From Candidatus Bathyarchaeota archaeon (GTDB lineage Archaea; Thermoproteota; Bathyarchaeia; Bathyarchaeales; Bathycorpusculaceae), in NCBI GenBank assembly GCA_903901015.1, contig CAIUPH010000004.1, positions 36,219 to 100,218 of the forward strand: DNA of 64,000 bases, written 5' to 3'. Position numbers and translations under genes: made by a program. Positions 3,138-50,910 of this stretch are shown piece after piece. Positions within the stretch are counted from its first letter, which is position 1; each line of letters starts with the position of its first letter. The notes below the pieces were generated by a model that worked only from the letters and a program-made list of their open reading frames with translations, searched no databases and was not told where the DNA came from.

Positions 3138-3183
3138 TTTGGAGCCTAATATCCAAGGTATGCAGGAAACGATAGGAGGGAGG
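3138..3183 (+). repeat. Degenerate copy A of dispersed ORB-like repeat
   Basis: TTTGGAGCCTAATA...TATGCAGGAAACGATAGGAGGGAGG aligns with the copies at 17267, 34876 and 50809. Confidence 0.55.
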
Positions 3184-3327
3184 CTACGCACGAACATATT
3201 TGGATCTGAGGGGTGTGCAGTATTCTGTTTTTGGGTGGTTTGTTGCTTTTTTTCTGTTACTCTAAAGTTGATCATCAGGAAAGTTAAACAGTAAAGAAAA
3301 CACAAAACCGAATTATGCACAGGGCTC

Positions 3328-3425
3328 GGATCCTATTAGGAACTCATTGCACAAACCATAGAGGGGTTCTATCTCTAAGGGTGTAGGTCGCTATTGTCGT
3401 TTTTCACAGTTAATAACATGTTGAA
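3328..3425 (+). repeat. Copy B (long form) of dispersed ORB-like repeat
   Basis: GGATCCTATTAG...AAACCATAGAGGGG...TAAGGGTGTAGGTCGCTATTGTCGTTTTTC...ACATGTTGAA. The distal part matches copy E (GGGGGTAGGGTCGTATTGACGTTTTTC) and copy D (GTAGGTGTTATTAGCGATTTTC...ACATGTTAAA). Confidence 0.65.
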
Positions 3426-3554
3426 TAGCAGCGCCTAAAACACGGGGTGTAAGATTTGGCTAACCCCGGAATTTCCCGTGTCATTTTAGATTTAGTTTAG
3501 ACGGGTAAAGGTTTAAGTGCATCATCCATGCATATTTTGCCAAAGGTATGGAAT

Positions 3555-3716
3555 ATGCCAACTCACGGAAGCTTATCAAAAGCTGGAAAAGTAAGGTCTC
3601 AAACGCCAAAAATCGTTGCAAAAGAGAAAACTGCTCCAAGCCCAAAAATCAGAAACAAACGCAATTATGAAAAGCGTGTGATTCTGCAAAGAAAAGCAGG
3701 GCAAAACTGGGTCTAA
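3555..3716 (+). CDS. rps30e: 30S ribosomal protein S30e (eS30)
   Basis: [20 protein letters not shown]...RNKRNYEKR signature; start moved to ATG 3555. Confidence 0.95.
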
Positions 3717-3804
3717 GCAGACCATTTTTTCAAGCTGATTTTTCCTTTTAACTTAGTGTAGTTTATTTATTCGTAGTCTTAACCTTATTTCTGGTACTTT
3801 CCAC

Positions 3805-5403
3805 TTGAACAACCAAGACGCCCTCAGAGAAATAATCTCCACTTTACTTTCTATGACTTCGCCCACTCATGAGGATGTTAATCGCCTAAAAATTAAAGTC
3901 TCGGCAAAGTACCATTTGGAAGCGGTCCCAAGTAACGCCGATTTAATAAGCGTCTTAACATCGATGGAAGCAAAAAAGCTTTTACCCATAATACGGAGAA
4001 AAGCAACCCGCGGTATCTCAGGCGTTACAGTAATAGCCGTTATGACAAAGCCTTATCCATGTCCGCAGCCGGAGCCCTGCGCTTATTGCCCAGGCGGACC
4101 AACACAGGGCAGCCCGCAAAGCTACACGGGGTATGAACCTGCGGCGCTGCGCGGAACCCAGAACAGTTTTGACCCTTACGAGCAGGTTAAGAGCCGATTC
4201 CGCCAGCTCACCGCGATTGGGCATAAAGTGGATAAGGTCGAGTTAATTGTGATGGGTGGAACCTTCCCGGCTACTCCCATGGAGTACCAAACGTGGTTTA
4301 TCCAACGCTGCCTCGACGCCCTAACAAATAAAACCTCCGCGAACTTAGAAGAGGCAAAGGCGAATGCGGAAGTCAGCAAAACCCGCAACGTCGGTATAAC
4401 CATTGAAACCCGCCCCGACTGGGCAAAACAACCCCACATCGACGCAATGCTCGACATGGGTGTAACCCGCATTGAGCTAGGCGTGCAGAATCCCGACGAC
4501 GAAATCTATCGTTTAGTCGGCAGAACCCACAGCGTCGCGGACGTGGTTGAGGCAACGCGCATCGCAAAGGATGCTGGATTAAAAATAGTTTATCACATGA
4601 TGCCTGGAATGCCCGGTTCCGACCACCAGAAAGACCTCGCTGCTTTCAAGCGGATTTTCACGGATTCAGATTTCAAACCTGATATGATAAAAATCTATCC
4701 CTGCTTAACCATCGCGGGAACCAAAACCTACGAATGGTATCAAAACGGCACATACGAACCCTACACCACCGAAGAAGCCGCAAACATCATCGCTGAAATC
4801 AAAAAAACCATCCCGACATGGGTGAGGCTGATGCGGGTGCAGCGCGACATTCCTGCAAGATTGATTTTAGCGGGGGTAAAAAAGAGTGACCTGCGCGAGC
4901 TTGTTCAAACTAAACTCAGAGCGCAGGGTAGCCAATGCCAATGTATCCGATGCCGCGAAGTGGGACACCGATTAGCCGTTGACCACATCAAGCCTGACTT
5001 GGAAAAAATCAAAATCTTAACCCAGCGCTACGAAGCCTCGGAGGGCACGGAATTTTTCATCTCAGCCGAAGACCCAGAAAACAACGTTCTACTTGGCTAC
5101 CTGCGCATGCGAGTTCCCTCCGCGAAAGCCCACAGACCTGAAATAACAGCCGTGCCATCTGCAATAATTCGGGAGCTCCACGTTTACGGGCAACTTGTTC
5201 CAGTGGGAAAACACGCCAAAGACGCCACACAGCACAAAGGCTACGGACAAATCCTCCTAAAAGAAGCCGAACACATAGCTCACGAGGAATTGGGTCTGAA
5301 AAAGCTTTTAGTCATCAGCGCGTTAGGAACAAGAAGGTACTACATGCGTTTCGGGTACGAGTGCGATGGAGTTTACGTTTCAAAAACCTTGGAGAAAAAG
5401 TAG
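3805..5403 (+). CDS. elp3: Elp3 tRNA wobble-uridine acetyltransferase (radical SAM + GNAT)
   Basis: CPQPEPCAYCPGGP radical SAM motif, ETRPD, ELGVQ, QCQCIRCRE, RELHVYG, QHKGYG acetyl-CoA motif and ISALGTRRYY. Confidence 0.95.
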   Translation: MNNQDALREIISTLLSMTSPTHEDVNRLKIKVSAKYHLEAVPSNADLISVLTSMEAKKLLPIIRRKATRGISGVTVIAVMTKPYPCPQPEPCAYCPGGPTQGSPQSYTGYEPAALRGTQNSFDPYEQVKSRFRQLTAIGHKVDKVELIVMGGTFPATPMEYQTWFIQRCLDALTNKTSANLEEAKANAEVSKTRNVGITIETRPDWAKQPHIDAMLDMGVTRIELGVQNPDDEIYRLVGRTHSVADVVEATRIAKDAGLKIVYHMMPGMPGSDHQKDLAAFKRIFTDSDFKPDMIKIYPCLTIAGTKTYEWYQNGTYEPYTTEEAANIIAEIKKTIPTWVRLMRVQRDIPARLILAGVKKSDLRELVQTKLRAQGSQCQCIRCREVGHRLAVDHIKPDLEKIKILTQRYEASEGTEFFISAEDPENNVLLGYLRMRVPSAKAHRPEITAVPSAIIRELHVYGQLVPVGKHAKDATQHKGYGQILLKEAEHIAHEELGLKKLLVISALGTRRYYMRFGYECDGVYVSKTLEKK

Positions 5404-6750
5404 ATGAGTCAAATTGAAAATTCAGGTTACAAGGGCGAAGCTTTGCGCCAGCTTAAATTGGCGGACTGCGACATCGGCGACATCATCAGAGTTACCAGCA
5501 AAAGCAAAGTTTACGAGGGCATCTTGATTCCACGTGCTGAGCTGGGCGAAGGCACCATCGTCATTGTTAAGATGAAGAGCGGCTACAACGTGGGCATCAA
5601 CGTTACAAAAGAAGTTAAAGTGGAGAAAATCGGCAAAGGCACAAAACCCGCATTTGCCTCTCCGTCCATCCCCAAACAGAACCCTGCATTGCCCCACGTA
5701 GTCATTATGAGCACAGGCGGCACAATCGCCAGCCGAGTCGACTACCGAACAGGAGCCGTGCGCTCAGCAATTTCAGCAAGCGACCTCTACGGCGTCGTTC
5801 CCGAACTCGCGGATGTAGCCCGAGTTGACACAGAAATCGTTTACAGCATCTACAGCGAAAACCTCACCCAGAAAAACTGGACAGAACTTGCCCAAAAAGT
5901 GGCGGAGCGCATCGAGCAGGGCGTAGATGGCATAGTAATCGCCCATGGCACAGACACGATGGCTTACACATCCGCCGCGCTGAGTTTTGCCTTGCAGAAT
6001 TTGCCTGTGCCAGTTATAGTTGTGGGTGCGCAGCGTTCGTCTGATCGACCCAGCAGTGACGCAGCCACAAACCTTATTGGCGCAGTGAAAGCCGCTGGAG
6101 AAGCGCCGTTTGCCGAAGTGTGTTTAGTCATGCATGAATCTGTTTCCGACATCGCCACGGTCGTGCATCGAGGCACAAAAGTTCGCAAGTGCCATACGAG
6201 CCGCCGAGACACCTTCAAATCCATCAACGGATTCCCAATCGCCAAAGTCAAAAACCTGCAGGTAACCATGGAAACTGACCAGTACCAACGCCGAGACCCC
6301 AAGAAAAAGCTGGTCCTAAAACCCAACTTCAGCGAAAAAGTCGCACTTGTAAAGTTCTATCCCGGGCTAGACCCAGCGGTCATAGATTTCTACGTTGAAA
6401 AAGGCTTCAAAGGCATCTTGCTTGAGGGTTCAGGTTTAGGTCATGTTAGCAAATTCTGTTTTGACTCCATCAAAAACGCCGTAGCGAAGGGCGTTTTGGT
6501 TGCGTTGGCTTCCCAGTGTATTTGGGGTCGCGTAAACATGAACGTCTACGATACAGGGCGGGATTTGCTGTCTTTTGGTGTTGTGCCGCTCGATGACATG
6601 TTTCCCGAAACGGGATTAGTTAAATTAATGTGGGTTCTTGGACAAACCAGCGATGTTGAAGAAGCAAAGAAGCTATTGAAAACTAACATTGCAGGCGAAT
6701 TTTCGTCACGTACGCTTCCGCAGGACAAAATCGTTGAAGGAGCACAATAA
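5404..6750 (+). CDS. gatD: Glutamyl-tRNA(Gln) amidotransferase subunit D
   Basis: KMKSGYNVG N-domain, STGGTIASRVDY, HGTDTM, GAQRSSDRPSSD; adjacent to gatE. Confidence 0.96.
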   Translation: MSQIENSGYKGEALRQLKLADCDIGDIIRVTSKSKVYEGILIPRAELGEGTIVIVKMKSGYNVGINVTKEVKVEKIGKGTKPAFASPSIPKQNPALPHVVIMSTGGTIASRVDYRTGAVRSAISASDLYGVVPELADVARVDTEIVYSIYSENLTQKNWTELAQKVAERIEQGVDGIVIAHGTDTMAYTSAALSFALQNLPVPVIVVGAQRSSDRPSSDAATNLIGAVKAAGEAPFAEVCLVMHESVSDIATVVHRGTKVRKCHTSRRDTFKSINGFPIAKVKNLQVTMETDQYQRRDPKKKLVLKPNFSEKVALVKFYPGLDPAVIDFYVEKGFKGILLEGSGLGHVSKFCFDSIKNAVAKGVLVALASQCIWGRVNMNVYDTGRDLLSFGVVPLDDMFPETGLVKLMWVLGQTSDVEEAKKLLKTNIAGEFSSRTLPQDKIVEGAQ

Positions 6751-6751
6751 A

Positions 6752-8650
6752 ATGACCATTGACTACGCTAAAGTTGGCTTAAAAGTGGGCTTGGAAATCC
6801 ACCAACAGCTAAACGTGGGCTCTAAACTATTCTGCAGTTGCCCACCCGAACTCTTCAAAGAAGACCCTGAAATCACTTTTCTACGCAGGCTCAGGCCAAC
6901 CCAGAGTGAACTGGGACAAATCGACCCAGCCGCCTATTTCGAGTTCCAGAAGGGCGTAAAAATCCTCTACGAAGCCAACCGAAAAAGCAGCTGCCTAGTC
7001 GAGATGGATGAGGAGCCGCCGCACCCAATCAACTTGGACGCGGTACAAGTGGTTTTAACGGCTTCGCTCATGATGAACATGCAGCCCGTTGACGAAGTAC
7101 ACGTTATGCGCAAAACCGTCATCGACGGCTCAAACACCACTGGTTTCCAGCGCACCTGCATCATCGCGCTCGACGGCTGGATAAAAGTCGGAGAAAAAAT
7201 CATTCCCATGCAAGCCTCAAGCCTTGAAGAAGATGCCGCTCGCAAAACGGGGACACAGGATGAGGGCAAAACCATCCGCTACCGCATCGACCGCCTGGGA
7301 ATCCCGCTTATCGAAGTTGCGACGGCGCCAGTGATCTATTCGCCCATGGAGGCGCAGGAAGTCGCGTTTGCCATCGGCAGGATTCTGCGTGATACGGGCA
7401 AGGTTATGCGTGGCTTGGGCACGATTAGGCAGGACTTGAACGTGTCTTTGCCAAACGGTGCTTTAATCGAAATTAAGGGTGTTCAGGAACTTGAGTTAAT
7501 ATCCACCGTCGTGGATTATGAGGTCCAGCGGCAACTGGGTTTAATCGCTATAAAAGAAGACCTCGCCAAATGCGGCGTAAACCATGAGTCGCTTAAATCG
7601 GACTTCGTGGACGTCACAGACATATTCAAAGAAACAAAAAGCAAGGTTATTCGCAAAGCAGTCGACAAAAAACAAAAGGTCCTAGCCGTCAAACTCCAAG
7701 GATTCGCAGGTTTAACGGGCCGCGAATTGATGCCTAACTTCCGTCTTGGCAGCGAGTTGTCTGACCGCGCCAAATTCTGGGGCAGAGTCGGCGGCATATT
7801 CCACACTGACGAGGTACTTGCCAACTACAGTATCACAGCCGAAGAAGTGGAGGCTTTGAGAAAAGCAGTGGGTGCCGCAGAAACCGACGCAGTGGTTTTC
7901 GTCGCTGACACTGCAGAGAACACGCAAGATGCACTCAAAGCTGTCGTGGAACGTGCGCAGGAAGCCTGCACAGGCATCCCGGCGGAGACTCGGACTGCAA
8001 AAGACGACGGAACCACACGTTACATGCGTCCACGTCCCGGTGCGGCAAGAATGTACCCCGAAACCGACATTCCCCCACAGATGATAACAGACGAATTGGT
8101 GCACAAAGTCATGTCGAACTTGCCTGAACCAGCCGAAAAGAAGCTGGCACGTCTTGTCAAGCAGTACGGCTTGAACGAGAAGTTGGGTAAGCAGCTTATT
8201 GACTCGGAGTATGGCAGCCTCTTTGAGGTAACGGTGAAAGAGAGCGGCGTTGCGGCTTCCACGGTTGCGGCGTTCTTGACAGAAACGACGAAGGCGCTGA
8301 AACGTGAAGGCATCCAGCTTGACAACGTTTCAGATGAGCAAATCAAAAGTATATTCAAAGCCGTAGGTTCAGGAGAACTCGCAAAAGAAGCCATCGCAGA
8401 TGTGTTTAGCTGGTTATCCAAGAACGAGGGCAAAACAGTGCAGGACGCAATTGGTGCTTTGGGCTTGAAAATGTTCACCGAAGCGGACTTGGCGCCTGTT
8501 ATCGACCGCGTAATCGCCGCAAACAAGGCGCAAGTAGACAAACTGGGTAAGAACGCATTTGGCATGCTTATGGGCGCCGCAATGAAAGAGGTCCGCGGTA
8601 AAGCCAACCCCGAATTGGTAGGCAAACTCCTGAGGGAACGGCTAAAATAG
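6752..8650 (+). CDS. gatE: Glutamyl-tRNA(Gln) amidotransferase subunit E
   Basis: GLKVGLEIHQQL, IDGSNTTGFQRT, LEEDAARK, DRLGIPLIEVAT, RPRPGAARMYPETD; start at ATG 6752. Confidence 0.96.
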   Translation: MTIDYAKVGLKVGLEIHQQLNVGSKLFCSCPPELFKEDPEITFLRRLRPTQSELGQIDPAAYFEFQKGVKILYEANRKSSCLVEMDEEPPHPINLDAVQVVLTASLMMNMQPVDEVHVMRKTVIDGSNTTGFQRTCIIALDGWIKVGEKIIPMQASSLEEDAARKTGTQDEGKTIRYRIDRLGIPLIEVATAPVIYSPMEAQEVAFAIGRILRDTGKVMRGLGTIRQDLNVSLPNGALIEIKGVQELELISTVVDYEVQRQLGLIAIKEDLAKCGVNHESLKSDFVDVTDIFKETKSKVIRKAVDKKQKVLAVKLQGFAGLTGRELMPNFRLGSELSDRAKFWGRVGGIFHTDEVLANYSITAEEVEALRKAVGAAETDAVVFVADTAENTQDALKAVVERAQEACTGIPAETRTAKDDGTTRYMRPRPGAARMYPETDIPPQMITDELVHKVMSNLPEPAEKKLARLVKQYGLNEKLGKQLIDSEYGSLFEVTVKESGVAASTVAAFLTETTKALKREGIQLDNVSDEQIKSIFKAVGSGELAKEAIADVFSWLSKNEGKTVQDAIGALGLKMFTEADLAPVIDRVIAANKAQVDKLGKNAFGMLMGAAMKEVRGKANPELVGKLLRERLK

Positions 8651-8730
8651 CCTTTTTTATGTTAAAAGAAGCTATTAGCCGCAAATCCTAAATGCTTTCT
8701 AAGAGTTAGCAGTAACGAGGCAGAAATCTG

Positions 8731-9207
8731 TTGAAACGCATCGAAGCACACATAAAAACTGGTTTTGGCGAAGTCGTCATCGAAGGCGAAAGCCCACAAG
8801 ACATAATGAACATGCTCGAATCCATTCCAGAGAACTTCGTTGAGAAACTCTCCGATTTCGTCTCAAACCGCCTAACACCCTCGGGAGCACAGCTCAAAGG
8901 TATAATCGAACCTACAACCGAAGGACCAATCATCGTTACCCGCGAAAACCTCACCCACTACGAAGCAGTCGGTTTGGTTTTATACGCTTCAGATGAACGA
9001 AAAAACACCGCTGCCCAAGTTCAGAAGCTTTTGGAGTCCAGCGGCATAAAAAGCATGGTGCCTGCTAGGCTTAACGAAATGACTAAGCGAGGGCAAATCT
9101 TCAAACCTGACCCATCGAAACCCGATTTCAAGTTGACGATTCAGGGCGAAAAATGGGTTGAAGACGATGTTCTCTCAAGGCTCAGGGGCAAAATGAGCGA
9201 ACGCTAA
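8731..9207 (+). CDS. Hypothetical protein, C-terminal winged-helix-like region
   Basis: 158-aa ORF with TTG start and a codon pattern like its neighbours. The ARLNEMTKRGQIFK...FKLTIQGEKW segment resembles a wHTH. Confidence 0.65.
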   Translation: MKRIEAHIKTGFGEVVIEGESPQDIMNMLESIPENFVEKLSDFVSNRLTPSGAQLKGIIEPTTEGPIIVTRENLTHYEAVGLVLYASDERKNTAAQVQKLLESSGIKSMVPARLNEMTKRGQIFKPDPSKPDFKLTIQGEKWVEDDVLSRLRGKMSER

Positions 9208-9390
9208 ATTCGAAAAATCCACGTGCTGGTGACCTAACGTTTAGGATAGCAACTTTTGGTGTGCTTCAGGTTCAAAGAGAGGTTCTTCCAAGAATTAAAT
9301 CAAAAATAACCATCTAAATTTTGTTTGAGCGCTAATCTGTTTAGGTAACGCTTATTAGCCTCCGTTACAACGGTTAATTGAGGACTTTTA

Positions 9391-9639
9391 TTGAATTTAA
9401 TTTTTTTGACTATAATTTATTCGATACTTAGCAGCTTGGGTCTCGGTGGATTCGACATTGCTTTCCTCATCGGACTTGTCATAATTGGCGTGATAATCAT
9501 TATTCTCATCAAACTGTTTCTGGTTTTGATTCCCGCAATTCTCGTTGCCGTCGTAGTATGGTTCCTCACAGGCGACCTGTTATGGACTGGCATCGCGTTT
9601 CTGGTCGTTGCGGCATTGTCATTATTGGCTAAGCTATAG
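9391..9639 (+). CDS. Small hydrophobic membrane protein
   Basis: Almost wholly hydrophobic, 2-3 TM helices; exact start uncertain. Confidence 0.6.
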   Translation: MNLIFLTIIYSILSSLGLGGFDIAFLIGLVIIGVIIIILIKLFLVLIPAILVAVVVWFLTGDLLWTGIAFLVVAALSLLAKL

Positions 9640-9853
9640 TTTCGCAACCAATCTCCAAATCCCTTTTCTTTTGTGTCCTTGTTTTAGTTAGCTCAATTAA
9701 AAGTAATGATGGCTAATGAAGACCAAGTTTTACGCTTAGTTTTCTTAAATAAACCGTTTTCTAACCTTACCGAACCTGTTTTTGCTTAATTAATTATGGG
9801 ACGCTTTCATAAGGCTTTTATATTTGGTAGGGGGTTCTTGCATATCAACAGGA

Positions 9854-10120
9854 ATGGACAGGGACCCTAAATTGACGATGATGGAACCAAGTAAAAAACC
9901 ATTGAACGTTCTCATTAAACAACTGCATGGCAACATCGAAGTTGTACTGAAAAACGGCTACGAATACAAGGGAAAAATGATAAAGTGCGACGGGCACATG
10001 AACATACTCTTGGAAGGCGCCACAGAATTCAAAGAAGACCAATTAATGACTAACTACGGGAACGTGTTGCTTCGAGGAAACAACATTCTCTACATAGTCA
10101 TGGATGCCAACCACCACTAA
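9854..10120 (+). CDS. Sm-like archaeal protein (SmAP/LSm)
   Basis: Sm1 motif (VVLKNG.EYKGKM..CDGHMNILL) and Sm2 motif (GNVLLRGNNILYI); start may be 9854, 9878 or 9881. Confidence 0.92.
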   Translation: MDRDPKLTMMEPSKKPLNVLIKQLHGNIEVVLKNGYEYKGKMIKCDGHMNILLEGATEFKEDQLMTNYGNVLLRGNNILYIVMDANHH

Positions 10121-11016
10121 AAAGCCAGATTTCTGGCTTCTCCAGTAACGTAGTCACAGGCGCTTTTTGCAGCTAAATCTACGTTAAATTTGCGGCTAAA
10201 AAAAACCAGCACATTTTTAATGTCCCTTTCAAGGTACTCGCCAGCGTTTGCGTGGTCGGTTTTTACTGCCTGTGGCCAATCGATGATGAGCAAGTGACCG
10301 TCAGGTTGCAGTATAATGTTGTATTCGCTCAAATCGCCGTGGATAATGTGTGCTTTTAAGTATGCTTTTCTGACGTTGCGCAGGATGTCTTTTAGGATTT
10401 TTTCGGGTTTGCCGATGTCTTTGTACTTGTAGAGTTGAGCACCTTCAATCATGCCCATGGCGACGACGTGGCGGTTGTGGCTTATGGGTTCAGGAACCGC
10501 AACACCTTTGGAGTAAACCAGCTTCATGGCTTCAAACTCTTTTTCCGCAGCTATATGAGATTGAAAAAGCCAACTCGAGTGTTCCCGGCTATAGCTCCTC
10601 TTGCGTCTGGTCTGTCTAAAACTTATTCGCCCCAGCCTATGGAATTTTATAGCTATGCGTCTGCCCTCAGAGTTCAACGCATCATAGACATCGGCTTCTT
10701 TTCCAACACCTAACGTTTGCCCAAACGATTCAATCACCCCTGCCTTGACCAGCGCGTTTATGGCTAAACAGTCGTACCCCGTGTAGTTGAGGGTGTGGCC
10801 GTTGTAGGTTTCTTGTGTGCGGTAAGTTAAGCCCAGTTTGTTTAACTTGCCAAGGATAAAGTCTACACGGTCCATTGGGAGTTTGGAGTGTTTCTGGATT
10901 TGTTCTTTGGGTACAAATTCGTGTTTGCTCATTCCAGCTTCGATTATGTTGAGGATTCGGAAGTCTTCATTTTCCAATTCCTTGAATACTTGGACAGCTA
11001 CTTCGGCGCTTGACAT
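10117..11016 (-). CDS. rio2: RIO2-type serine/threonine kinase with N-terminal wHTH
   Basis: GVGKEADVY, KFHRLGRISF, HGDLSEYNI, IIDWPQ. Confidence 0.92.
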   Translation of the reverse strand: MSSAEVAVQVFKELENEDFRILNIIEAGMSKHEFVPKEQIQKHSKLPMDRVDFILGKLNKLGLTYRTQETYNGHTLNYTGYDCLAINALVKAGVIESFGQTLGVGKEADVYDALNSEGRRIAIKFHRLGRISFRQTRRKRSYSREHSSWLFQSHIAAEKEFEAMKLVYSKGVAVPEPISHNRHVVAMGMIEGAQLYKYKDIGKPEKILKDILRNVRKAYLKAHIIHGDLSEYNIILQPDGHLLIIDWPQAVKTDHANAGEYLERDIKNVLVFFSRKFNVDLAAKSACDYVTGEARNLAF

Positions 11017-11182
11017 ACAATCATTTATAAAGTTGTTTTTCTGCTATTAAAACTAGGTTTTACTGGGATTAACATGTTTTTTTGAGTGGCACTTATATTG
11101 GCGTAAGCCTTTTTAATGGATTATATGCCAAAACCGTTCATCAACAAGGTATCATTAAATAGTAAACTCATGGTTTTACAAT

Positions 11183-11905
11183 ATGGCAGTAGATCAAGGA
11201 AACGTTTCAAAGGTACTTTCCGTCCTTTCACATCCCATACGAAGGGAAATATTACTAGACCTCAGCAATAACGGCGAGTCATCTTTCACAGACTTGCTAA
11301 ACATGCTCAAGGTCGATACTGGAAAGCTCAGCTTTCACCTCCGCGCACTCGCACCTTTCATAGAGCAAACCTCCAACGGCAAGTACAAGCTCAGTAGAGC
11401 TGGCGAGAGCGCTGTGCGCGTCATTCATGATGTTGAGGGTTGGGCAGAAGTGGCTGACGTGCAGGGGAAGGCAAGTTCACTTCCGCTTGCTTCTTTTAAA
11501 AATCGGGCTTTTGCATTCCTTATCGATTTTTCGATGATATTAGCTATCACGGCGGCAATTACTTTCATTCCTGACGTGCTTTCGATTTCTCAGGCGGGTT
11601 TCTTTAGCAACAAAATTAGCTCATTGCTTTTCATAACAATTGGCCTTCTTTGGCTTTACTCCACTTTACTCGAGGGCTTTAACGGTCAAAGCATAGGAAA
11701 ACGTGCAATAGGATTAAAGGTCGTTAGAACTGATGGAAAGAAAATGTCCTACGACCATGCAGCAGTACGAAACTTTGGCAAAGTTTTACCATTACTCCCC
11801 TTCGACTTACTTATAGGGTGGCGGATAAAAAACAGCGCGTTCATGCGGTACTTTGACAAGTTCGCAGGTACCACCGTCATCAATCTGCGTTCTAATATTC
11901 AATAA
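11183..11905 (+). CDS. ArsR-like wHTH fused to an RDD-family membrane domain
   Basis: LSHPIRREIL...GKLSFHLRAL HTH, followed by the RDD motifs RAFAFLIDF and GQSIGKRAIGLKVV. Confidence 0.8.
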   Translation: MAVDQGNVSKVLSVLSHPIRREILLDLSNNGESSFTDLLNMLKVDTGKLSFHLRALAPFIEQTSNGKYKLSRAGESAVRVIHDVEGWAEVADVQGKASSLPLASFKNRAFAFLIDFSMILAITAAITFIPDVLSISQAGFFSNKISSLLFITIGLLWLYSTLLEGFNGQSIGKRAIGLKVVRTDGKKMSYDHAAVRNFGKVLPLLPFDLLIGWRIKNSAFMRYFDKFAGTTVINLRSNIQ

Positions 11906-11976
11906 ATTTTCTGTTTTGTTTTGAGTAAAATCTTATTTGTTGCATCTTCATAGCTTATGCGGGAGACAAAAAGGGT

Positions 11977-12441
11977 ATGAGTGACAAGGAGCTCAGAGTT
12001 ACTAAAATCAAAGACGGCACCGTCATCGACCACATCCGCGGCGGATACGCGTTGGATGTTGTGAAGATTTTAGGTATAACGGGCAAAGAAAAACGGGTTA
12101 TGACCATCGCAATCAACGTTCCCAGCAAAAGCATCGGCGTTAAAGACATTGTGAAGATTGAAGGCAAAGCCCTGAGCCCGCAGGAAGTCAACAGGATTGC
12201 ACTGGTGGCTCCCCATGCATCTATAAACATCGTTCGCGACTACGCGGTAGTCGAAAAATTAGAGGTTAAATTGCCCAGCGCCATCGAAGGTATAGTTAAA
12301 TGCGTAAACCCCTGCTGCATAAGCAACGCCGAGGAACCCGTAACATCCAAATTCCATGTTAAAAGTGAGGAACCGCTACTGCTAAAATGCCACTACTGCG
12401 GCGTCACATTGGAGCAGGCGGATGTTCTGGGGAAGCTTTAA
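11977..12441 (+). CDS. pyrI: Aspartate carbamoyltransferase regulatory chain
   Basis: IKDGTVIDHI, KDIVKIE, CVNPCCIS and CHYC zinc ligands. Confidence 0.95.
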   Translation: MSDKELRVTKIKDGTVIDHIRGGYALDVVKILGITGKEKRVMTIAINVPSKSIGVKDIVKIEGKALSPQEVNRIALVAPHASINIVRDYAVVEKLEVKLPSAIEGIVKCVNPCCISNAEEPVTSKFHVKSEEPLLLKCHYCGVTLEQADVLGKL

Positions 12442-12881
12442 GGCAGCTTTTCTTGAGCCAACAAAAACATTTCTTCAAAATCTTTTCGAGTCAACGTTTT
12501 GCCCTTGCCTATCGCAGGGCACTCGAATGTAAAATCGAAAACATGCAAGTCTTTGTCAGCATCAAATTTTAGTTCAAAGGGATAGAACCTGCAAATTAAG
12601 GGTCTATACGCGTAGATACTGCACTGGTTGTCTTCGAGGAAAACACATTTGCCCACGCGGTTTTTCTTCATTTCATAAAGGTAAGGCGTTTTATCTGCAA
12701 CTATCTGGGTAAAATCCTGTTTTGGCAACCGCGTTTTTTTGGAAATAGCGTTTGCTTCTGACTCCAAAACCAAGATGTGCCTTGTCTTCTGCTTTGTGTC
12801 GCCGCAGCATAAACCGCATTTGCTGCATTCGAAAACTACAGTGTTGGGATAGGTGAAATCCAATTTCTTTTCAGCAAACAA
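12438..12881 (-). CDS. YkgJ-family (CxxCxxCC) cysteine-cluster protein
   Basis: FECSKCGLCCG...CVFL..NQCSIYAYRPLICRFYPF. Confidence 0.88.
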   Translation of the reverse strand: MFAEKKLDFTYPNTVVFECSKCGLCCGDTKQKTRHILVLESEANAISKKTRLPKQDFTQIVADKTPYLYEMKKNRVGKCVFLEDNQCSIYAYRPLICRFYPFELKFDADKDLHVFDFTFECPAIGKGKTLTRKDFEEMFLLAQEKLP

Positions 12882-12911
12882 AATACTGTGGTTTTGCCAT
12901 AAAAACCTTAG

Positions 12912-13244
12912 TTACGGTTTTTTTGTTTCTGTGGGCTGTTTGGCGCGGTGACCTTCGCCGTACTGGAATGGTCGCCCAAGGTTTTTCTCAAGTTTCTTCT
13001 TGAACACTTCATCCATGTTCATGCTGGGGCACGCTAAGCGGCTGGCATCCAAAACGTAGAAGACAACATCGATTAGTTCCTCAGCAATTTTTTCTTCAGG
13101 CAACCCCTTCTTCCATGCGTCGCTGGCTTCGCCAAGTTCTATGAATGCAAAGAGCAGTTTCTTTGGGATGTCCTCGGGTTTGTTGTAGAAGCCTTTTGCT
13201 ATGACTAATGCTTCGATTTCTTTCTTCATTTCTTCCAGCTGCAA
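12912..13244 (-). CDS. MazG-like nucleotide pyrophosphohydrolase
   Basis: ELGEASDAWKK...EELIDV acidic all-alpha NTP-PPase motif. Confidence 0.8.
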   Translation of the reverse strand: MQLEEMKKEIEALVIAKGFYNKPEDIPKKLLFAFIELGEASDAWKKGLPEEKIAEELIDVVFYVLDASRLACPSMNMDEVFKKKLEKNLGRPFQYGEGHRAKQPTETKKP

Positions 13245-13334
13245 CCAACTTACGCTCCTTTGCTGCTCTCAAAAACTATAGCCCTCTTATATAAAGGGTA
13301 AACCGATGAAAAGCTGGCGAAGATTGTGCTCTCA

Positions 13335-13353
13335 CGACCTACCCCTCCATTAT
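13335..13353 (-). repeat. Partial copy F of dispersed ORB-like repeat (G-string part only)
   Basis: Minus strand TAATGGAGGGGTAGGTCGT versus copy E TAATGGGGGTAGGGTCGT; lies at the end of acr3. Confidence 0.5.
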
Positions 13354-13370
13354 TTATAGAAAATTTAGGG

Positions 13371-14435
13371 CTATTTCGCTGATTCGCCTTTTTTTGGTTC
13401 CCGTTTGATGCGGTTTCTTCGTCGTAGCGCAAGCGAAACCAGACTTAACATGACTGGAATCTCTATGAGTGGACCAACCACAGTTGACACTGCCACCATC
13501 GGCATCGAAGCGAATGCAGTTAAGGCGATTGCTATTGCCAACTCAAAGTTTCTGCCCGTACAGTGAAATGCCATGGTTGAGGAATCTTCGTAGTTGTATC
13601 CGAGGCGTCGCGTGGTGAAATAAACGATGTTAAAGAGGAGGAAAAAGAACAGAACCACCGGAATCGCCATCTGCCAAACCAGGGAGGGATTATCGAGGAT
13701 GACGCCGCCCCGCAGCGCAAACATAACAACCATCGTGGCGAGCAGCGCCAGCAGCTGAAGCGAGTCGAAGTACGGTATCAATTTTTTTTGGAACCACTGT
13801 TGCGATTTGCGTTTGATGATTTCTCTTCGGGTAATGGCGCCTAAAAGCAGGGGCAGCCCGAGGTACAGCAGTATGCTTTCTCCAATGATTGCAATATCTA
13901 TTGAAACATAGGTGCCAATGAGCAATGCGATGAACAAGGGCGTGGTTACTATTTGAATTATCGAGTTCCAAGCCATAAGCACTATTCCAAGCGGACCGTT
14001 CCCCTTGCACAAGTCAGTCCACACCAGCACCATGGCAATGCAGGGCGCAACCCCGAGAAGGATAAGACCCGTCCAAAGATACCGCGCGGTCACGGGATCT
14101 ATTAACCCAAAGTATGGAAAAATCACTTCAAAGAAAACGTATCCCAGAGCAAACAGGAGAAAAGGGTTTACGGCGTAGTTGAAAAAGATGATTATAGAGG
14201 TTTGCTTGGGGCTTTTTACGGCTTTTTTTAGTTCGCTGATTTCGATTTTTGTCATAGCCGGGTAAATCATGAAGAATAAGCCGATGGGTATGCCGACTTG
14301 GAGGGTGCTGCTGAAAGCTGGGAAATATTTGCCGATGGCCAACCCGATAACTATGGCTATTGCAATCCACAGCGCGAGGAGTTTGCTTATCCAGCCTAAG
14401 GTTTTAGGTTCCTCGTCACAAGTCACTGACGACAC
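13371..14435 (-). CDS. acr3: ACR3-family arsenite efflux transporter
   Basis: MIYPAM, GVAPCIAMVLVW (conserved Cys), GRNFELAIAIA, VGPLIEIPVM. Confidence 0.93.
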   Translation of the reverse strand: MSSVTCDEEPKTLGWISKLLALWIAIAIVIGLAIGKYFPAFSSTLQVGIPIGLFFMIYPAMTKIEISELKKAVKSPKQTSIIIFFNYAVNPFLLFALGYVFFEVIFPYFGLIDPVTARYLWTGLILLGVAPCIAMVLVWTDLCKGNGPLGIVLMAWNSIIQIVTTPLFIALLIGTYVSIDIAIIGESILLYLGLPLLLGAITRREIIKRKSQQWFQKKLIPYFDSLQLLALLATMVVMFALRGGVILDNPSLVWQMAIPVVLFFFLLFNIVYFTTRRLGYNYEDSSTMAFHCTGRNFELAIAIALTAFASMPMVAVSTVVGPLIEIPVMLSLVSLALRRRNRIKREPKKGESAK

Positions 14436-14449
14436 CTACCGACACCATG

Positions 14450-14791
14450 TTATTCATCTTCAGAACTGCAGCTCATCTGCTTTACAACTTCTTTCAGCAA
14501 AACACTGACCAGTTCAGGCGTCAGGGAATCAACTGCGTTGAGTATTCGCGCATTGACGATGGAGTACATTCTTTTTGTTCCGTCTTTTCGGCAGCTAATT
14601 ATTCCAACGTCACGCAGGATTTTGAGGTGTCTGGAAACGACGGGTTGGATAAGGTTTAGGTGGGGGACTATTTCGCAGACGCATTTTTCACCGTCGCGTA
14701 GGAACTCGAGTATTTCTAGTCTGTCTGATGCCGAGAGCGCATGGAAAACTTGGGCTTTGAATCTTACTTGTGCGATTGCTGGTTGGGGCAT
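14450..14791 (-). CDS. arsR: ArsR/SmtB-family repressor
   Basis: FHALSASDRLEIL..L..GEKCVCEI...QPVVSRHLKILR; probable start ATG 14791, likely leaderless. Confidence 0.9.
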   Translation of the reverse strand: MPQPAIAQVRFKAQVFHALSASDRLEILEFLRDGEKCVCEIVPHLNLIQPVVSRHLKILRDVGIISCRKDGTKRMYSIVNARILNAVDSLTPELVSVLLKEVVKQMSCSSEDE

Positions 14792-14812
14792 AGTTAAAAA
14801 ATGTTCATAACA

Positions 14813-14824
14813 ATATTTAAATAT
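14813..14824. promoter_or_regulatory. Palindromic bidirectional TATA/operator between arsR and the ferredoxin-arsC operon
   Basis: Perfect palindrome ATATTTAAATAT about 22 bp from the arsR ATG and about 32 bp from the ferredoxin ATG. Confidence 0.55.
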
Positions 14825-14856
14825 ATTCATATTAGACTATTGAATAGACGATTTCT

Positions 14857-15147
14857 ATGTCAGAAAACGAATACGACGGAATCCCAAGAAACAAAATACA
14901 CTGGGCGCCAAAAATTGACTATGAAAAATGCGTCTCCTGCGGAAAATGCGTAGAATTCTGCCACATGCAAACATTTGATTTTGAAGAGAAGAATGGAAAA
15001 AAGAAAACTGTAGTGAAAGACCAAAATGCATGCGTCGTATTCTGCAGAGGTTGTGAAGACATATGTCCAGCAGGTGCAATAACGCATCCATCAGAAGAGG
15101 AAACTCGAAGGTCGATTGAAAAACTTCAAGAAGCTGCATTAACATAG
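14857..15147 (+). CDS. 2x[4Fe-4S] ferredoxin
   Basis: CVSCGKCVEFC and CVVFCRGCEDICP. Confidence 0.88.
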   Translation: MSENEYDGIPRNKIHWAPKIDYEKCVSCGKCVEFCHMQTFDFEEKNGKKKTVVKDQNACVVFCRGCEDICPAGAITHPSEEETRRSIEKLQEAALT

Positions 15148-15162
15148 AAAAAGGCGTTTAGA

Positions 15163-15564
15163 ATGAAGAAAATTTTGTTCGTCTGCGTTGAAAATGCTGG
15201 AAGAAGCCAGATGGCAGAAGCGTTTGCAAAGAAATATGGCGCAGACAACGTTTCAGTTTCCAGCGCGGGCAACAAACCCGCCGACAAGGTTACCCCCATA
15301 GTCGTTGAAGTCATGAAGGAGAAAGGCATCGACATTTCAACTAACAAGCCTATGGAAATAACTGCCAAAATGGCGATGGATGCAGACTTGATTGTAACTA
15401 TGGGTTGCAGCGCTCAAGGAATTTGCCCCGGTCCATTCTTTAAACCCACGGTTGATTGGGCACTTGAAGACCCAAAGGGTAAATCCATAGATAAAGTCAG
15501 AGAAATCCGTGATGAAATCGAAAGAAGAGTAAAAGAACTAATAGCCAAACAAACGACGTCATAA
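15163..15564 (+). CDS. arsC: Arsenate reductase, LMW-PTP fold
   Basis: FVCVENAGRSQMAEAF P-loop, TMGC..C, DWALEDP. Confidence 0.92.
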   Translation: MKKILFVCVENAGRSQMAEAFAKKYGADNVSVSSAGNKPADKVTPIVVEVMKEKGIDISTNKPMEITAKMAMDADLIVTMGCSAQGICPGPFFKPTVDWALEDPKGKSIDKVREIRDEIERRVKELIAKQTTS

Positions 15565-15569
15565 CTCGG

Positions 15570-15716
15570 TTAGGAAAGCGTCCCTTTTACCGCATCTGCC
15601 TTTAATCTTAGAAAATCAGCGGTATCTTCGAAATCAAGGCAGGCATTGTCGACCTTTTCCGGGCTGGTAAGGGAACAGCGCCCTTCTTTATAGTTTATAC
15701 AAGTTTTTTGTGACAA
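15570..15716 (-). CDS. Possible small Cys-containing protein
   Basis: TTG start giving MSQKTCINYKEGRCSLTSPEKVDNACLDFEDT...; no recognised family. Confidence 0.3.
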   Translation of the reverse strand: MSQKTCINYKEGRCSLTSPEKVDNACLDFEDTADFLRLKADAVKGTLS

Positions 15717-15756
15717 GAAATTTGGCTCAAAGAAGTTCTCCCCAAAAGAAAAAGGG

Positions 15757-16347: not shown

Positions 16348-16472
16348 AAATGATGCCCAAGTTAGAATTTGTAGTTCATAGATATATATGAATATTGCTA
16401 TAATACTTGAGCTCAAAACTTTTGGCAACTATTATATTTAACAACCCACATTTAGGAGCACTAGGTAAAAGC

Positions 16473-17066: not shown

Positions 17067-17150
17067 ATGGTTAATGATATTTTAGCGAAGTACGGGTCGG
17101 CAACGTATTTATTTACTTAGAAGTAATTGGGATAAACACCTTAAGCATGT

Positions 17151-17266: not shown

Positions 17267-17360
17267 GCGGCATATTTGGAGCCTATTAGAGGTTCTATGT
17301 TGAAACCTATAGGGGGTAGGTCAGTATTGGCACAGAACAAGCGCATTGGTATGTTGAAAA
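17267..17360 (+). repeat. Copy C of dispersed ORB-like repeat
   Basis: CATATTTGGAGCCTATTAGAGGTTCTATGTTGAAACCTATAGGGGGTAGGT; 35 of the first 36 nt are identical to copy D. Begins about 30 bp after the tRNA 3' end. Confidence 0.85.
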
Positions 17361-17422
17361 ACAATGCCTAAAAGTTGGGTGCCCACGTAAGGGTCGGAAA
17401 TCGAGGGGCAAAACAGCTGTTC

Positions 17423-34875: not shown

Positions 34876-34964
34876 CATATTTGGAGCCTAATAGAGGTTC
34901 TATGTTGAAACTATAGAGGGGTAGGTGTTATTAGCGATTTTCGCATGCATTGACATGTTAAAAA
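34876..34964 (+). repeat. Copy D of dispersed ORB-like repeat
   Basis: CATATTTGGAGCCTAATAGAGGTTCTATGTTGAAACTATAGAGGGGTAGGT..., ending about 17 bp before the amt stop. Confidence 0.85.
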
Positions 34965-34981
34965 TATTTGTTATATGCTTC

Positions 34982-38265: not shown

Positions 38266-38282
38266 TTCATAACAATTATGAA
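38266..38282. promoter_or_regulatory. Perfect 7-3-7 inverted repeat, candidate operator
   Basis: TTCATAA-CAA-TTATGAA in the divergent amt/APC-permease intergenic region; the 14-mer TTTTTCATAACAAT recurs at 40643 upstream of glnA. Confidence 0.45.
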
Positions 38283-38348
38283 CAAATATTAACTATACTT
38301 ATATTATACTGGACAGATAGATACGTAAAATAAATCTTGGTGAACAAT

Positions 38349-40447: not shown

Positions 40448-40868
40448 TTTTTCATTCACCTTTAGTTTTATTAGTCAATTAACCAAAGAGTGGGTGATTA
40501 GATATAAAGGTGATTATGATTTGTTCATAACTTTTAAGAAATACAAGAAATATTTTCAGCAGAAAGATGTTAAGATGGACGTATGTTGCTTCATTGAATT
40601 TTTTGTTGAACATTAGTGAATGAGTGTCGACAAAATAAATTATTTTTCATAACAATCGTTGATTCTGAGGCCTTGCTTAATTAATTTTGGAGCAAACGTT
40701 AAGTAGAAAAAAGTTATGTGAGTTACGCATCCAATTTTTTAGATATTATGTGCACAAATGTCACACATTTATTAATTAGTATGAACAAATCTCAACTATC
40801 TTTAAATGTCATAAAAATGTTCCTTGCTCAAAACATAACCAGTTTAATCTGAGAAAATGGTGAAAAAA

Positions 40869-41250
40869 ATGGAGAAAACTGATTTGACAAAAAAAGCAGT
40901 TGAAACCTTAAAAACCAACAACGTCAGATGGGTCCATTCAACCTTTGTTGATGTTCGCGGTATACTCCAAGACAAGGTTCTGCCCGCAAGAGAATACTTA
41001 AACGGTTCAGCCTTTAACTAAGGCATAGGCTTTGACGGTTCCTCAGTGCGGGGCTTCAAATCCATCGAAGAATCAGACATGATATTCATGCCTGACCCAG
41101 AAACCCTCGCCATAATGCCCTGGGTAACTGACGAAAAGCAAAAAAGCGCTATCATACTGGGAGATGTCTACGAAGCATACGGCGGAAAAGAGCTCTCAGT
41201 CGTTGATCAAAGAAGCTACGTTGCGAAAAGCATTCGAAGGCTACATTCCT
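40869..41250 (+). pseudogene. glnA: Glutamine synthetase type I, 5' fragment with internal stop
   Basis: MEKTDL...VRWVHSTFVDVRG...[32 protein letters not shown]...; TAA at 41019-41021, homology lost at about 41231. Confidence 0.9.
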
Positions 41251-41613: not shown

Positions 41614-41972
41614 TTTTTTTACCAACTGCTCATAACCTGTTTTTTTAATTGCTGTTTTGCTGACGGCCGAACTTTGATTGGTAAATTCTGTTTTTAGCGG
41701 ATTTTTAGGTCTGTGACCTGCGAGATAACACTGCGTTGGATTAATTTTTTTTGACAATTTTTCTTAGCCTTACCATTTTGGTCAGGTTATGTTTTCAACA
41801 ATTATACATTTTTCTGTAAATTAGTTCAATATATCTTAATTTTTATGTACAAATCACAAATAAGTTTATAATGAGGAAGGGATACCAGTATAAAAGTTAA
41901 GGGAGAACCAAAATTGCAAATCAGTAAAAGAACGCTGGAATTCCAGAATTCTTTTGGAAAGGAAGTAAAAGC

Positions 41973-46150: not shown

Positions 46151-46162
46151 GGTGGATAAATC

Positions 46163-49370: not shown

Positions 49371-49967
49371 TTGGACTTCATGCTTTTCATTTCGGAGTTA
49401 GGCAAAGCTGCCCTAGCCCTTTTTATTATCGTTGATCCATTTGGAAACATCCCAATTTTCGTTGGTTTAACCGAAAACGTGCCCAGTACCCAGAGGAAAA
49501 AAGTCTACAACACCGCAACAATCGTCGGCATGGTTCTGTTGCTTGTTTTCGCATTTGCTGGAACTGGCATTTTAACGGCTTTTGGGCTTTCAATCTGGAG
49601 TTTTGAAGTTGCAGGCGGTATCTTGCTGCTTATTATTGCCATCAGGATTTTGGTTACGGGCAGCATGCATGAAAACGTTGAATCGCCAGAGAGTTTAGGT
49701 GCTGTTCCCATAGCTATTCCGCTTCTTGTCGGTCCAGGTGCAATCACCACCACCATATTTAACATTCAACAGTACAACGTGGAAATCGCGATTGCATCGG
49801 TTTTAGTTGTGATGCTGGTAACATGGGTTATTCTCAGGTACATTGATGGAGTATACAAGGTTCTGGGAAAAACGGGTTCTCTGATTATTGCACGGGTTAT
49901 GGCGTTGCTTATCGCTGCGATTGCAATTCAGTATATCTTGACTGGAGTAATACACTTCGTAGTTTAA
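49371..49967 (+). CDS. MarC-family membrane protein
   Basis: LFIIVDPFGNIPIF, FEVAGGILL, VPIAIPLLVGPGAIT, RVMALLIAAIAIQ. Confidence 0.92.
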   Translation: MDFMLFISELGKAALALFIIVDPFGNIPIFVGLTENVPSTQRKKVYNTATIVGMVLLLVFAFAGTGILTAFGLSIWSFEVAGGILLLIIAIRILVTGSMHENVESPESLGAVPIAIPLLVGPGAITTTIFNIQQYNVEIAIASVLVVMLVTWVILRYIDGVYKVLGKTGSLIIARVMALLIAAIAIQYILTGVIHFVV

Positions 49968-50066
49968 CCCAAACTTAAGCCGGTTTAAGAGTACCCAAAC
50001 AACAAGCCATTTCCCCTAAAGCCAAATCAAACAATAAATAAAACCCCGCAAATAGTATTTTTCAAC

Positions 50067-50570
50067 GTGAACAATATGCGGTTTGAATGCAGCGGTTGCA
50101 AAAAATCCTTCTCTGGTAAAGGCTTAACTGTGAATTTGAACGGTAACGAACAGATGTATTGTGCCGAATGCTACTGGACGCTCCAGAAAGAATACGACAA
50201 GAAGAAAAATTGTGAAAACTGCGGACACTTCGATGAAGAAACCTGTGAGAAAAACGGGAAAAAGATGAAACCCGCGAAAATTGGGTTTAACGAGTATTTC
50301 ATTGAGGCAGAAAACTGCAGAAACTACTCAACCGAGGCAAAAGCTGGGGCTGACAAAAAGAAAAAAGAGTTATCTGAGGAGCAGAAAGAAGCTGTTGCCC
50401 TGGTTAAAAAACTCGCGGAGAAAAACCAAACCCTAACCTATTATTGTTGCCATTGCGGAGCACCCCTAAAAATCGGTGCAAAATCACCTGAAATCCAAAA
50501 AACCTGCCCCCGATGCAGCGGCGACTTAGAAGTCATTAATCTTGCCCGATTCGTCAAGCAACACCAATAA
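50067..50570 (+). CDS. Multi-zinc-ribbon hypothetical protein
   Basis: CSGC/CAEC, CENC..C, CCHCG/CPRC pairs. Confidence 0.7.
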   Translation: MNNMRFECSGCKKSFSGKGLTVNLNGNEQMYCAECYWTLQKEYDKKKNCENCGHFDEETCEKNGKKMKPAKIGFNEYFIEAENCRNYSTEAKAGADKKKKELSEEQKEAVALVKKLAEKNQTLTYYCCHCGAPLKIGAKSPEIQKTCPRCSGDLEVINLARFVKQHQ

Positions 50571-50678
50571 AAAATAGCTGCCTCTCAAAGCCTTTTTCTT
50601 ACAAAGCTTTGAGCTTTTGGTACAGGCAGAACTGTTTATGTGGCTATTTTGTAAACTTTATGATAATAATAAGTCTGG

Positions 50679-50795
50679 ATGGCTTTAGGTTCAGCGGGGT
50701 TTGATGGGTTGGCGTTTGTGGTTGCAGCCTTGGTTTCTGCGTTGTCGGTGCCGCTGGTTTTGATGTTTAAGAAAGCGTCTGAAGCGGCGGCGTGA
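50679..50795 (+). CDS. Possible small TM peptide or transporter C-terminal remnant (38 aa)
   Basis: MALGSAGFDGLAFVVAALVSALSVPLVLMFKKASEAAA*; ends next to repeat E. Confidence 0.3.
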   Translation: MALGSAGFDGLAFVVAALVSALSVPLVLMFKKASEAAA

Positions 50796-50808
50796 TGGTT
50801 TTGGCTTG

Positions 50809-50910
50809 GAAAAACGTCAATACGACCCTACCCCCATTAGTGGCTGCCTACCCCTCTATCGTTTCAACATAGATCCACTATTAGGCTCCTAATATGCTCC
50901 AACTATGCCG
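50809..50910 (-). repeat. Copy E (long form, minus strand) of dispersed ORB-like repeat
   Basis: Minus strand GCGGCATAGTTGGAGCATATTAGGAGCCTAATAGTGGATCTATGTTGAAACGATAGAGGGGTAGGCAGCCACTAATGGGGGTAGGGTCGTATTGACGTTTTTC. Confidence 0.85.

Follow-up and report, generated by a model that had tools for sequence, protein, structure and literature searches.

Does a short non-coding repeat in the DNA of an uncultured archaeon mark replication origins, the scars of integrated elements, or a repeat family in its own right? The repeat in question lies in a stretch of 64,000 nucleotides (nt) of Candidatus Bathyarchaeota DNA from a lake metagenome (contig CAIUPH010000004.1, positions 36,219 to 100,218; hereafter the window). 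A sequence-only reading had described six copies, likened them to archaeal origin-recognition boxes (ORBs) and proposed dormant origins, scars of integrative elements or a new DNA or RNA motif. With moderate confidence, we take the element to be a non-coding, non-autonomous, modular interspersed repeat of Bathyarchaeia that spreads duplicatively and then decays. The proposal of a new DNA motif is supported, and the motif occupies inter-operon gaps that differ between relatives. The family seems undescribed; as far as the searchable literature shows, there are no described repeat families in genomes of Bathyarchaeia, which are among the most abundant uncultured archaea of sediments and peat.

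A modular intergenic repeat of Bathyarchaeia

Three sites of the window fit the core pattern GGAGCCTAWTAGNGGNTCTATGTTGAAAC exactly (17278-17306 and 34883-34911 on the plus strand, 50861-50889 on the minus strand), compared with none in 100 dinucleotide-preserving shuffles. An nhmmer profile of 13 units, all taken from other genomes and none from the window, finds five significant copies (E = 2.8e-11 to 1.9e-5), and a repeat search ties the three strong copies to the same two weaker ones (3134-3184 and 3328-3367). Five of the six copies first claimed are thus recovered. The sixth, a G-string-only copy at 13335, falls away: its E-value is 46, and a 13-mer with up to two mismatches is expected about once by chance.

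Beyond the window, a scan of one genome per species with GCCTAWTAGNNNNNCTATGTTGAAA returns 41 stretches, 32 of which lie in 14 species-level metagenome-assembled genomes of Bathyarchaeia/Thermoproteota. The other nine, from Prochlorococcus, are unrelated matches inside a conserved coding region. A looser pattern yields 107 metagenome stretches. The strict copies of a complete 3.04-Mb genome stand at 1.40, 1.77, 1.85, 1.90 and 2.38 Mb, spanning about 1 Mb, and their strand order along the chromosome (+, -, +, -, -) has no polarity trend. Copies are spaced at roughly one per 40-100 kb.

Two metagenome runs that hold the window genome show how often the unit recurs. In run X1, its depth at copy C is 860 against 12.4-12.9 in the flanks (about 68-fold), and the assembly breaks at the element, with 53 contigs; in run X6, the unit reaches 161.6 against 5.8-6.1 (about 27-fold). 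At its 5' end the repeat starts abruptly, and the sequence before it is unrelated among 10-12 contigs in each run. These depth ratios suggest tens of copies per genome, a number that may include related organisms in the sample.

All of the roughly 120 copies are intergenic. Where both flanking genes were called (69 copies), 23 lie between convergent, 12 between divergent and 34 between co-directional gene pairs. Copies are oriented nearly at random with respect to genes, gene 3' ends are mildly favoured, and many copies start 6-55 nt past the stop codon of a co-directional gene. The adjoining genes have unrelated housekeeping or transport functions, and no protein family recurs directly beside the copies among the neighbours scanned. 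A tRNA gene lies within 200 nt of 4 of 122 copies, which is no enrichment.

The unit is about 51 nt long and reads (C[A/C])TATTTGG-A(G/T)-CCTAWTAG-N5-CTATGTTGAAAC-(C)TATAGRGGGGTAGGT. Its 37-nt head, TATTTGG-A(G/T)-CCTAWTAG-N5-CTATGTTGAAAC, precedes CTATAGGGGGTAGGT and consists of three sequence boxes: TATTTGG, CCTAWTAG, and either [C/T]ATGTTGAAAC or CATTGCAGAAAC. Type-a units carry CTATGTTGAAAC, and type-b units carry CATTGCAGAAAC and recur as the second array unit in other genomes. Arrays comprise one to three head-to-tail units joined by 8-17-nt linkers ending in ..ACGAA, and such tandem joints are also present in metagenome contigs. Long forms have an extra CTAAGGGGGGTAGGT, a second G-string. 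Many copies close with a terminal module, TATTGGC-N10-GCCATTAGTATGTTGAAAAAC, which is the head with an insertion and a deletion.

Tails are subfamily-specific, with a G-string tail in the window genome (G-type) and a T-run tail in others (T-type). The T-type subfamily keeps the 37-nt head, continues as ACGAGCTTTTTTTC without a G-string and often has a 75-nt left arm. Overall, the G-string is missing from 58 of 122 copies, about half of the family. Because T-type copies retain the head and lack the G-string, the head is the conserved core of the family, although its conservation is partly a matter of ascertainment, since both collection scans demanded exact head matches.

The copies and their parts in the window are the following.

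3134..3184, plus strand: copy A, one type-b unit (CATTTTTGGAGCCTAATATCCAAGGTATGCAGGAAACGATAGGAGGGAGGC), repeat-search family D3 (profile match 3136-3183, E = 1.9e-5)
3185..3238, plus strand: linker TACGCACGAA, ending in ..ACGAA as in other arrays, then an internally deleted unit (CATATTTGGATC joined to GAGGGGTGTGCAGTATTCTGTTTTTGG), by direct reading
3320..3429, plus strand: copy A2, long form, from the profile (3328-3367, E = 1.1e-10), repeat-search family D7 and alignment
17271..17322, plus strand: copy B, type-a unit, exact pattern match (profile match over the same span, E = 2.8e-11)
17323..17362, plus strand: terminal module of copy B (AGTATTGGCACAGAACAAGCGCATTGGTATGTTGAAAAAC), its end facing the 3' end of metW (17423-18016, minus strand)
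34876..34926, plus strand: copy C, type-a unit, exact pattern match (profile match over the same span, E = 1e-8)
34927..34965, plus strand: terminal module of copy C, ending 17 nt short of the amt stop codon (amt at 34982-36274, minus strand)
50846..50907, minus strand: copy E, a partial head duplication (CATAGTTGGAG, 50907-50897) followed by a type-a unit (50896-50846), exact pattern match (profile match to the unit, E = 1.4e-6)
50803..50845, minus strand: second G-string of copy E (CCACTAATGGGGGTAGGGT) and a truncated terminal module (CGTATTGACGTTTTTCCAAGCC), the final ATGTTGAAAA box absent
13336..13350, minus strand: ATGGAGGGGTAGG, the former G-string-only copy, not a demonstrable family member

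Copy A points its head toward the 5' end of a Fer4_5 gene, and the deleted unit behind it gives only a weak profile match at 3195-3206. Copy A2 runs from a degenerate box 1 through a type-b unit (3328-3367) and a second G-string (3378-3388) to a terminal module (3389-3429), and other genomes carry near-identical second units (for example L132). The copies at 3138 and 3328, which had been called degenerate, instead represent the second conserved unit type, in which CATTGCAGAAAC replaces CTATGTTGAAAC and which recurs in other genomes. The copies at 17271 and 34876 differ, as first noted, by one mismatch in their first 36 nt, and homology runs about 40 nt further past the unit (TATTG.CG.TTTTC...CATGTTGAA). 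The count of two G-strings in the copies at 3328 and 50809 and one in those at 17271 and 34876 is likewise correct. Copy B begins at 17271 and not at 17267, 33 nt beyond the 3' end of tRNA-Leu(CAG); the boundary is sharp, with unrelated sequence upstream in 11-12 contigs. The neighbours had been named correctly for tRNA-Leu/metW, amt and the small open reading frames (ORFs). A position at the boundaries of accessory blocks was not shown, and the window genes are ordinary housekeeping genes.

Several observations concern the surroundings of the copies. Two zinc-ribbon ORFs (CxxC…CxxC) at 34618-34764 (plus strand, 48 amino acids) and 51090-51191 (minus strand, 33 amino acids) lie upstream of copies C and E and are co-directional with them; a depth of 107-170 over the latter region in one metagenome indicates that it is conserved or present in many copies. 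The amt gene beside copy C has a tandem paralogue (34982-36274 and 36561-37835, 72-76% nucleotide identity). A tRNA-Leu gene is followed by a co-oriented head in the window (17151-17305, 35 nt apart) and, with a T-type copy, in Ca. Bathyarchaeum L037 (3787-3990, 82 nt apart). Two more copies lie near tRNA-Pro genes, and this proximity may be coincidence or an old hot spot. A possibly secreted protein family of about 390-450 amino acids, with no Pfam match and members 33-62% identical, recurs near elements. In two genomes (L019 3270-4418, L044 3789-5129), an element follows the stop codon of its gene at 6-9 nt; the gene is upstream and co-directional in L143/L151 and lies about 315 nt downstream of the element in L037 (4306-5523).

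Turnover between relatives and possible links to mobile DNA

At orthologous sites, copies degenerate or are lost; units are added to arrays and removed from them, and lineages amplify variants of their own. At the 3' end of metW, six relatives (MetW 86-91% identical) carry two strong copies, one truncated copy that runs onto the stop codon and one degenerate copy, and two have none; the gene downstream of metW is different in all seven genomes, the window included. At the 3' end of amt, four relatives (Amt 88-96% identical) carry two remnants and two lack the element, among them the 96% relative, and the downstream gene again differs in all genomes compared. The flanking proteins of L032 and L035 share 90-93% identity, and the arrays of the two differ in content. 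Between ELP3 and gatD, L034 carries an element and a small ORF in a spacer of 700 nt; the window lacks an element there. A CCGCC variant occurs in three copies in CP170178.1 and in one copy in a second genome, a GTGCC variant occurs in CP170178.1 only, and within one genome, the tail is common to copies at separate loci.

In this reading, the head, which has neither a hairpin nor terminal inverted repeats, would be recognised by a protein that acts in trans to copy or move the element. Such a protein could be a transposase or recombinase encoded elsewhere in the genome, or on a virus or integrative element. The number of units would change through unequal recombination between heads or between G-strings, and any effect on neighbouring genes or rearrangement would be a by-product. 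A bolder version makes the head the recognition site of a novel archaeal mobilisation/recombination system, maybe borne by viruses or islands, that copies single-ended modules into intergenic DNA class-wide and perhaps aids the shuffling of gene blocks, such as the 14.3-kb housekeeping block of the window that has direct copies at its borders; we regard this as rather unlikely.

Two copies do occur on mobile DNA. IMG/VR has no match to two strict patterns, and a looser pattern finds two, L160 and L161. In L160, a unit next to an OLD-family nuclease gene precedes a large-terminase gene (phrog_2, 9e-48) by about 165 nt. In L161, a restriction/helicase island holds a full element, and a tyrosine integrase gene (phrog_1, 1e-8) ends about 135 nt before it. 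Of 44 T-type copies, moreover, 17 have (GC)4-5 or GCATGCATGC runs on each side, where about three are expected, and the runs covary, with GCGCGCGC at both ends or GCATGCATGC at both ends. This bracketing resembles target duplications or terminal palindromes.

The notion of integrative-element scars draws on the two copies on virus or island DNA, but the link is weak, though not zero. An integrase accompanies just 1 of about 150 loci. As first stated, the window has no cdc6, integrase or transposase gene. A more specific form of the idea holds that the copies are att-like recombination sites or end scars of integrative elements, with the head as the target of a site-specific recombinase and gene blocks moving between copies. 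Besides the integrase and terminase neighbours, it can point to one large difference in gene order. Relative to L154, where an element stands between metW and Fer4, the window has an extra 14.3-kb block (2935-17422) at this position, bordered by elements in direct orientation (B on one side, A/A2 on the other), and the orthology of the flanking genes is supported. The block, however, consists of housekeeping genes (rps30e, ELP3, gatDE, rio2, pyrI and tRNA-Leu). The gaps after the metYXW and amt operons vary among relatives both with and without an element, and all inter-operon junctions examined differ, including element-free ones (L155, L159, L162, L165). Because element-free junctions are equally variable, the breakpoints are not element-specific. 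In addition, the rps30e flank adjoins a head in L157 and a tail in the window, a switch that simple exchange between copies cannot produce. We consider att-like sites quite unlikely. The elements mark inter-operon gaps; that they cause the breakpoints is not shown.

Gene order outside operons is heavily shuffled among Bathyarchaeia relatives with 86-96% identical proteins (L154-L159, L162-L165). A Fer4_5-NosD-like pair follows metW in L154, Fer4_5 follows amt in L162, and the pair in the window is divergent from rps30e. The small gene at 3555-3716 (plus strand), which probably encodes ribosomal protein eS30, sits between copy A2 and ELP3, and the rps30e-ELP3 pair follows metW in L157.

Several results weigh against a repeat that spreads by duplication. 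About 0.93 Mb of sequence surrounding the copies yielded no transposase or recombinase that carries the same ends, and the neighbours scanned hold no transposase domains. Terminal inverted repeats are absent: the 5' end CATATTTGGAGCC has nothing in common with the 3' end ..TATGTTGAAAAAC or its reverse complement GTTTTTCAACATA, and the inverted-repeat pairs that involve copies are solely whole copies on opposite strands. A target-site duplication was not found for the G-type, where RY runs flank both sides in 1 of 45 copies. No clean pair of a filled and an empty site was recovered, and related metagenomes hold no empty-site or excision joints at copies B, C and E except a loss of the terminal module at B (17333-17419 is missing at the same metW site in a related species, seen as a contig joint). 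The possible share of related organisms in the depth-based copy number counts on the same side, and the high conservation of the head across seemingly distant lineages could reflect a host function instead.

Such a host function might be that of domesticated double-stranded DNA sites bound by a protein, either a nucleoid or architectural factor or a global regulator whose operator they would form. Three conserved primary-sequence boxes with flexible spacing and no secondary structure, the presence of the family in several Bathyarchaeia lineages and a density of roughly one copy per 40-100 kb are in keeping with this. The neighbouring genes, however, form no coherent regulon, one third of the copies lie between convergent genes, copies at orthologous sites decay or vanish in close relatives, and the variants are genome-specific. 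We judge host binding sites to be improbable.

Origin boxes, RNA and further features of the window

The ORB comparison, from which the question arose, gives no support to replication origins: the idea fails on proximity to orc1, dispersal, orientation, the G-string and alignment to ORBs. In its full form, it holds that Orc1/Cdc6-bound ORB-like sites mark dormant origins, or the origins of formerly integrated plasmids or viruses. The G-type unit does contain TTC-N6-GAAAC with GGGGGT 5-6 nt on, two copies are carried by mobile DNA, and TGAAACCTATAGGGGGT resembles TGAAACTCTGGGGGGT of Pyrococcus furiosus ORB1 (p ~0.05; PMC1904270). We aligned both unit types to P. furiosus ORB1 and ORB2 (PMC1904270) and to the Sulfolobus solfataricus mini-ORB (PMC3089459). 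Against shuffles, the six alignments give p = 0.049, 0.064, 0.13, 0.24, 0.34 and 0.69, so that four exceed 0.1, and the best, which is marginal, shares only TGAAAC..GGGGGT. The canonical dyad TTCC-N-GGAA(A) is absent, with TTC-N6-GAAAC as the only counterpart, and the most conserved part of the unit (TATTTGGAKCCTAATAG) has no equivalent in ORBs.

The genomic setting points the same way. A search of 932 kb of fetched loci, of which about 0.84 Mb surrounds some 120 Bathyarchaeia copies, turned up no Orc1/Cdc6-like ORF, and the window has none. Tens of copies per genome are scattered across megabases, their units run head to tail and are not inverted around an AT-rich unwinding element, and the lowest flanking GC lies at the 1.8-3.4th percentile, an AT-richness ordinary for intergenic DNA. 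The T-type half of the family has no G-string at all. Archaeal ORBs and mini-ORBs (PMC1904270, PMC3089459, PMC4010727) share with the repeat a GAAAC-ending box with a G-run a few bases later, and their boxes can cluster. In contrast to them, the repeat is not located at orc1/cdc6, is dispersed in direct units without a TTCC/GGAA dyad and can dispense with the G-run, and its likeness to published ORBs is not significant. We regard an origin function as very improbable. For the annotation of new archaeal genomes, the result is a warning not to take GAAAC-plus-G-run motifs for replication origins.

The element might also act as RNA, whether as a small RNA, a 3'-untranslated-region or terminator module, or a cis-regulatory leader. 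Its frequent start shortly past a co-directional stop codon is suggestive of this, as are the runs of T6-7 after T-type heads and T4-5 on the reverse strand of the terminal module; oligo-T is used in archaeal transcription termination. The unit also occurs in at least six different contigs of one sediment metatranscriptome. These contigs, however, have a depth only proportional to DNA copy number and may reflect DNA carry-over, and the metatranscriptome contigs, from unrelated sediment and peat samples and without strand information, are at most weak evidence of read-through transcription. No RNA runs containing the window were found. Rfam returns tRNA alone at gathering score, with best sub-threshold matches at E = 9.9 and 0.46, and folding of 22 element sequences, four of them on both strands, gives z-scores between -2.0 and +1.4, which is no structure signal. 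The only recurrent hairpin shows no covariation. For the terminal module, RNAalifold finds 0 consensus pairs, and 246 of 500 shuffles reach the covariation score of its candidate stem. Orientation relative to genes is near random, and direct reading shows no TATA-box-like promoter within the element. An RNA-level role appears unlikely.

Individual RNA and coding candidates were rejected as well. The hairpin GGAGCCU/AGGUUCU is predicted in most G-type copies, but its halves vary independently over 110 copies (GATCC faces CAACT, TGGTT and AGGTT alike), and T-type copies cannot form it. The hairpins UCUAU/AUAGR and AGGUU/AACCU are absent from the T-type, and copy C cannot form the latter. The terminal-module stem TATTGGC/GCCATTA lacks covariation. 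A C/D-box small RNA would require RUGAUGA where the element has AUGUUGA, and the box order is wrong. A small ORF from the head ATG has no conserved frame: it stops after four codons in copy C, and the length of the T-run varies.

Other features of the window stand apart from the repeat. An AT-rich repeat of 40-55 nt (TTCATAACAATTATGAACAAATATTAAC...) has copies in both direct and inverted orientation at 38250-38304, 40497-40556, 40767-40812 and 41832-41871, upstream of an amino-acid permease gene, a glnA-like fragment and kdpA. Over 40-42 kb, GC drops to 0.37, and its lowest 80-nt value is 0.16 at 41792; the AT-rich repeat could be a shared operator or part of a decayed region. Judged by eye, the translation of about 40868-41160 presumably corresponds to the N-terminus of a glutamine-synthetase-like protein. 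It is interrupted by an in-frame stop, which may point to a pseudogene or to recoding. Two paralogous Fer4_5 membrane-protein genes, 1306-2934 (minus strand) and 60494-61747 (plus strand), are inverted and 58 kb apart.

Comparison with known repeat systems

The repeat family breaks assemblies and marks fast-changing inter-operon gaps. Its 37-nt head offers a sequence handle for finding the protein that recognises it, whether a chromatin factor or a novel type of transposase or recombinase, and the variation of unit number between close relatives makes it a lineage or strain marker. By analogy, its behaviour appears similar to that of the BOX, MIRU, REP and MITE elements.

Some CRISPR repeats of Thermoproteota end in ATTGAAAG. 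The head of about 30-37 nt likewise ends in GTTGAAAC, and its CTAAT...CTAT motifs loosely recall Sulfolobus repeats. The identification as a CRISPR repeat was rejected: each of 148 stretches holds a single exact match, there are no arrays of this type, and the linkers between units are conserved and are not variable spacers. The flanking genes examined include no cas genes.

MITEs, including the archaeal SM1-type of Sulfolobus, are similarly small, non-autonomous, intergenic and present in many copies. Assemblies break at copies of the repeat, and the short GC-rich palindromic runs that bracket T-type copies add to the likeness. Unlike MITEs, the repeat has no terminal inverted repeats; no demonstrable target-site duplication was found for the G-type, and no parent insertion sequence near the copies.

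REP/BIME elements are mobilised by RAYT (IS200/IS605-like) transposases, and REPs are imperfect palindromes that usually occur as inverted pairs. The repeat shares with them an extragenic location, a high copy number, enrichment near gene 3' ends and lineage-specific variants, and its G-string (GGGGTAGG) holds a GTAG tetranucleotide. It differs in having direct units and neither a palindrome, a stable hairpin nor covariation. No RAYT-like gene was seen around the copies, and no genome-wide search for RAYT was made.

The BOX elements of Streptococcus pneumoniae and the MIRUs of mycobacteria are likewise short non-coding modules at tens of intergenic loci, without a gene of their own, and the number of their internal units varies per locus and between close relatives. 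The A and C modules of BOX can pair into a long stem-loop, and MIRUs are reported in one orientation within operons. The Bathyarchaeia repeat is archaeal and unrelated to both in sequence; in contrast to BOX, it has no folding signal, and unlike MIRUs, it lies in any orientation. It nevertheless has the organisation of a BOX/MIRU-type family: dispersed intergenic loci with one to three units and an optional terminal module, and syntenic loci that differ between relatives in their units.

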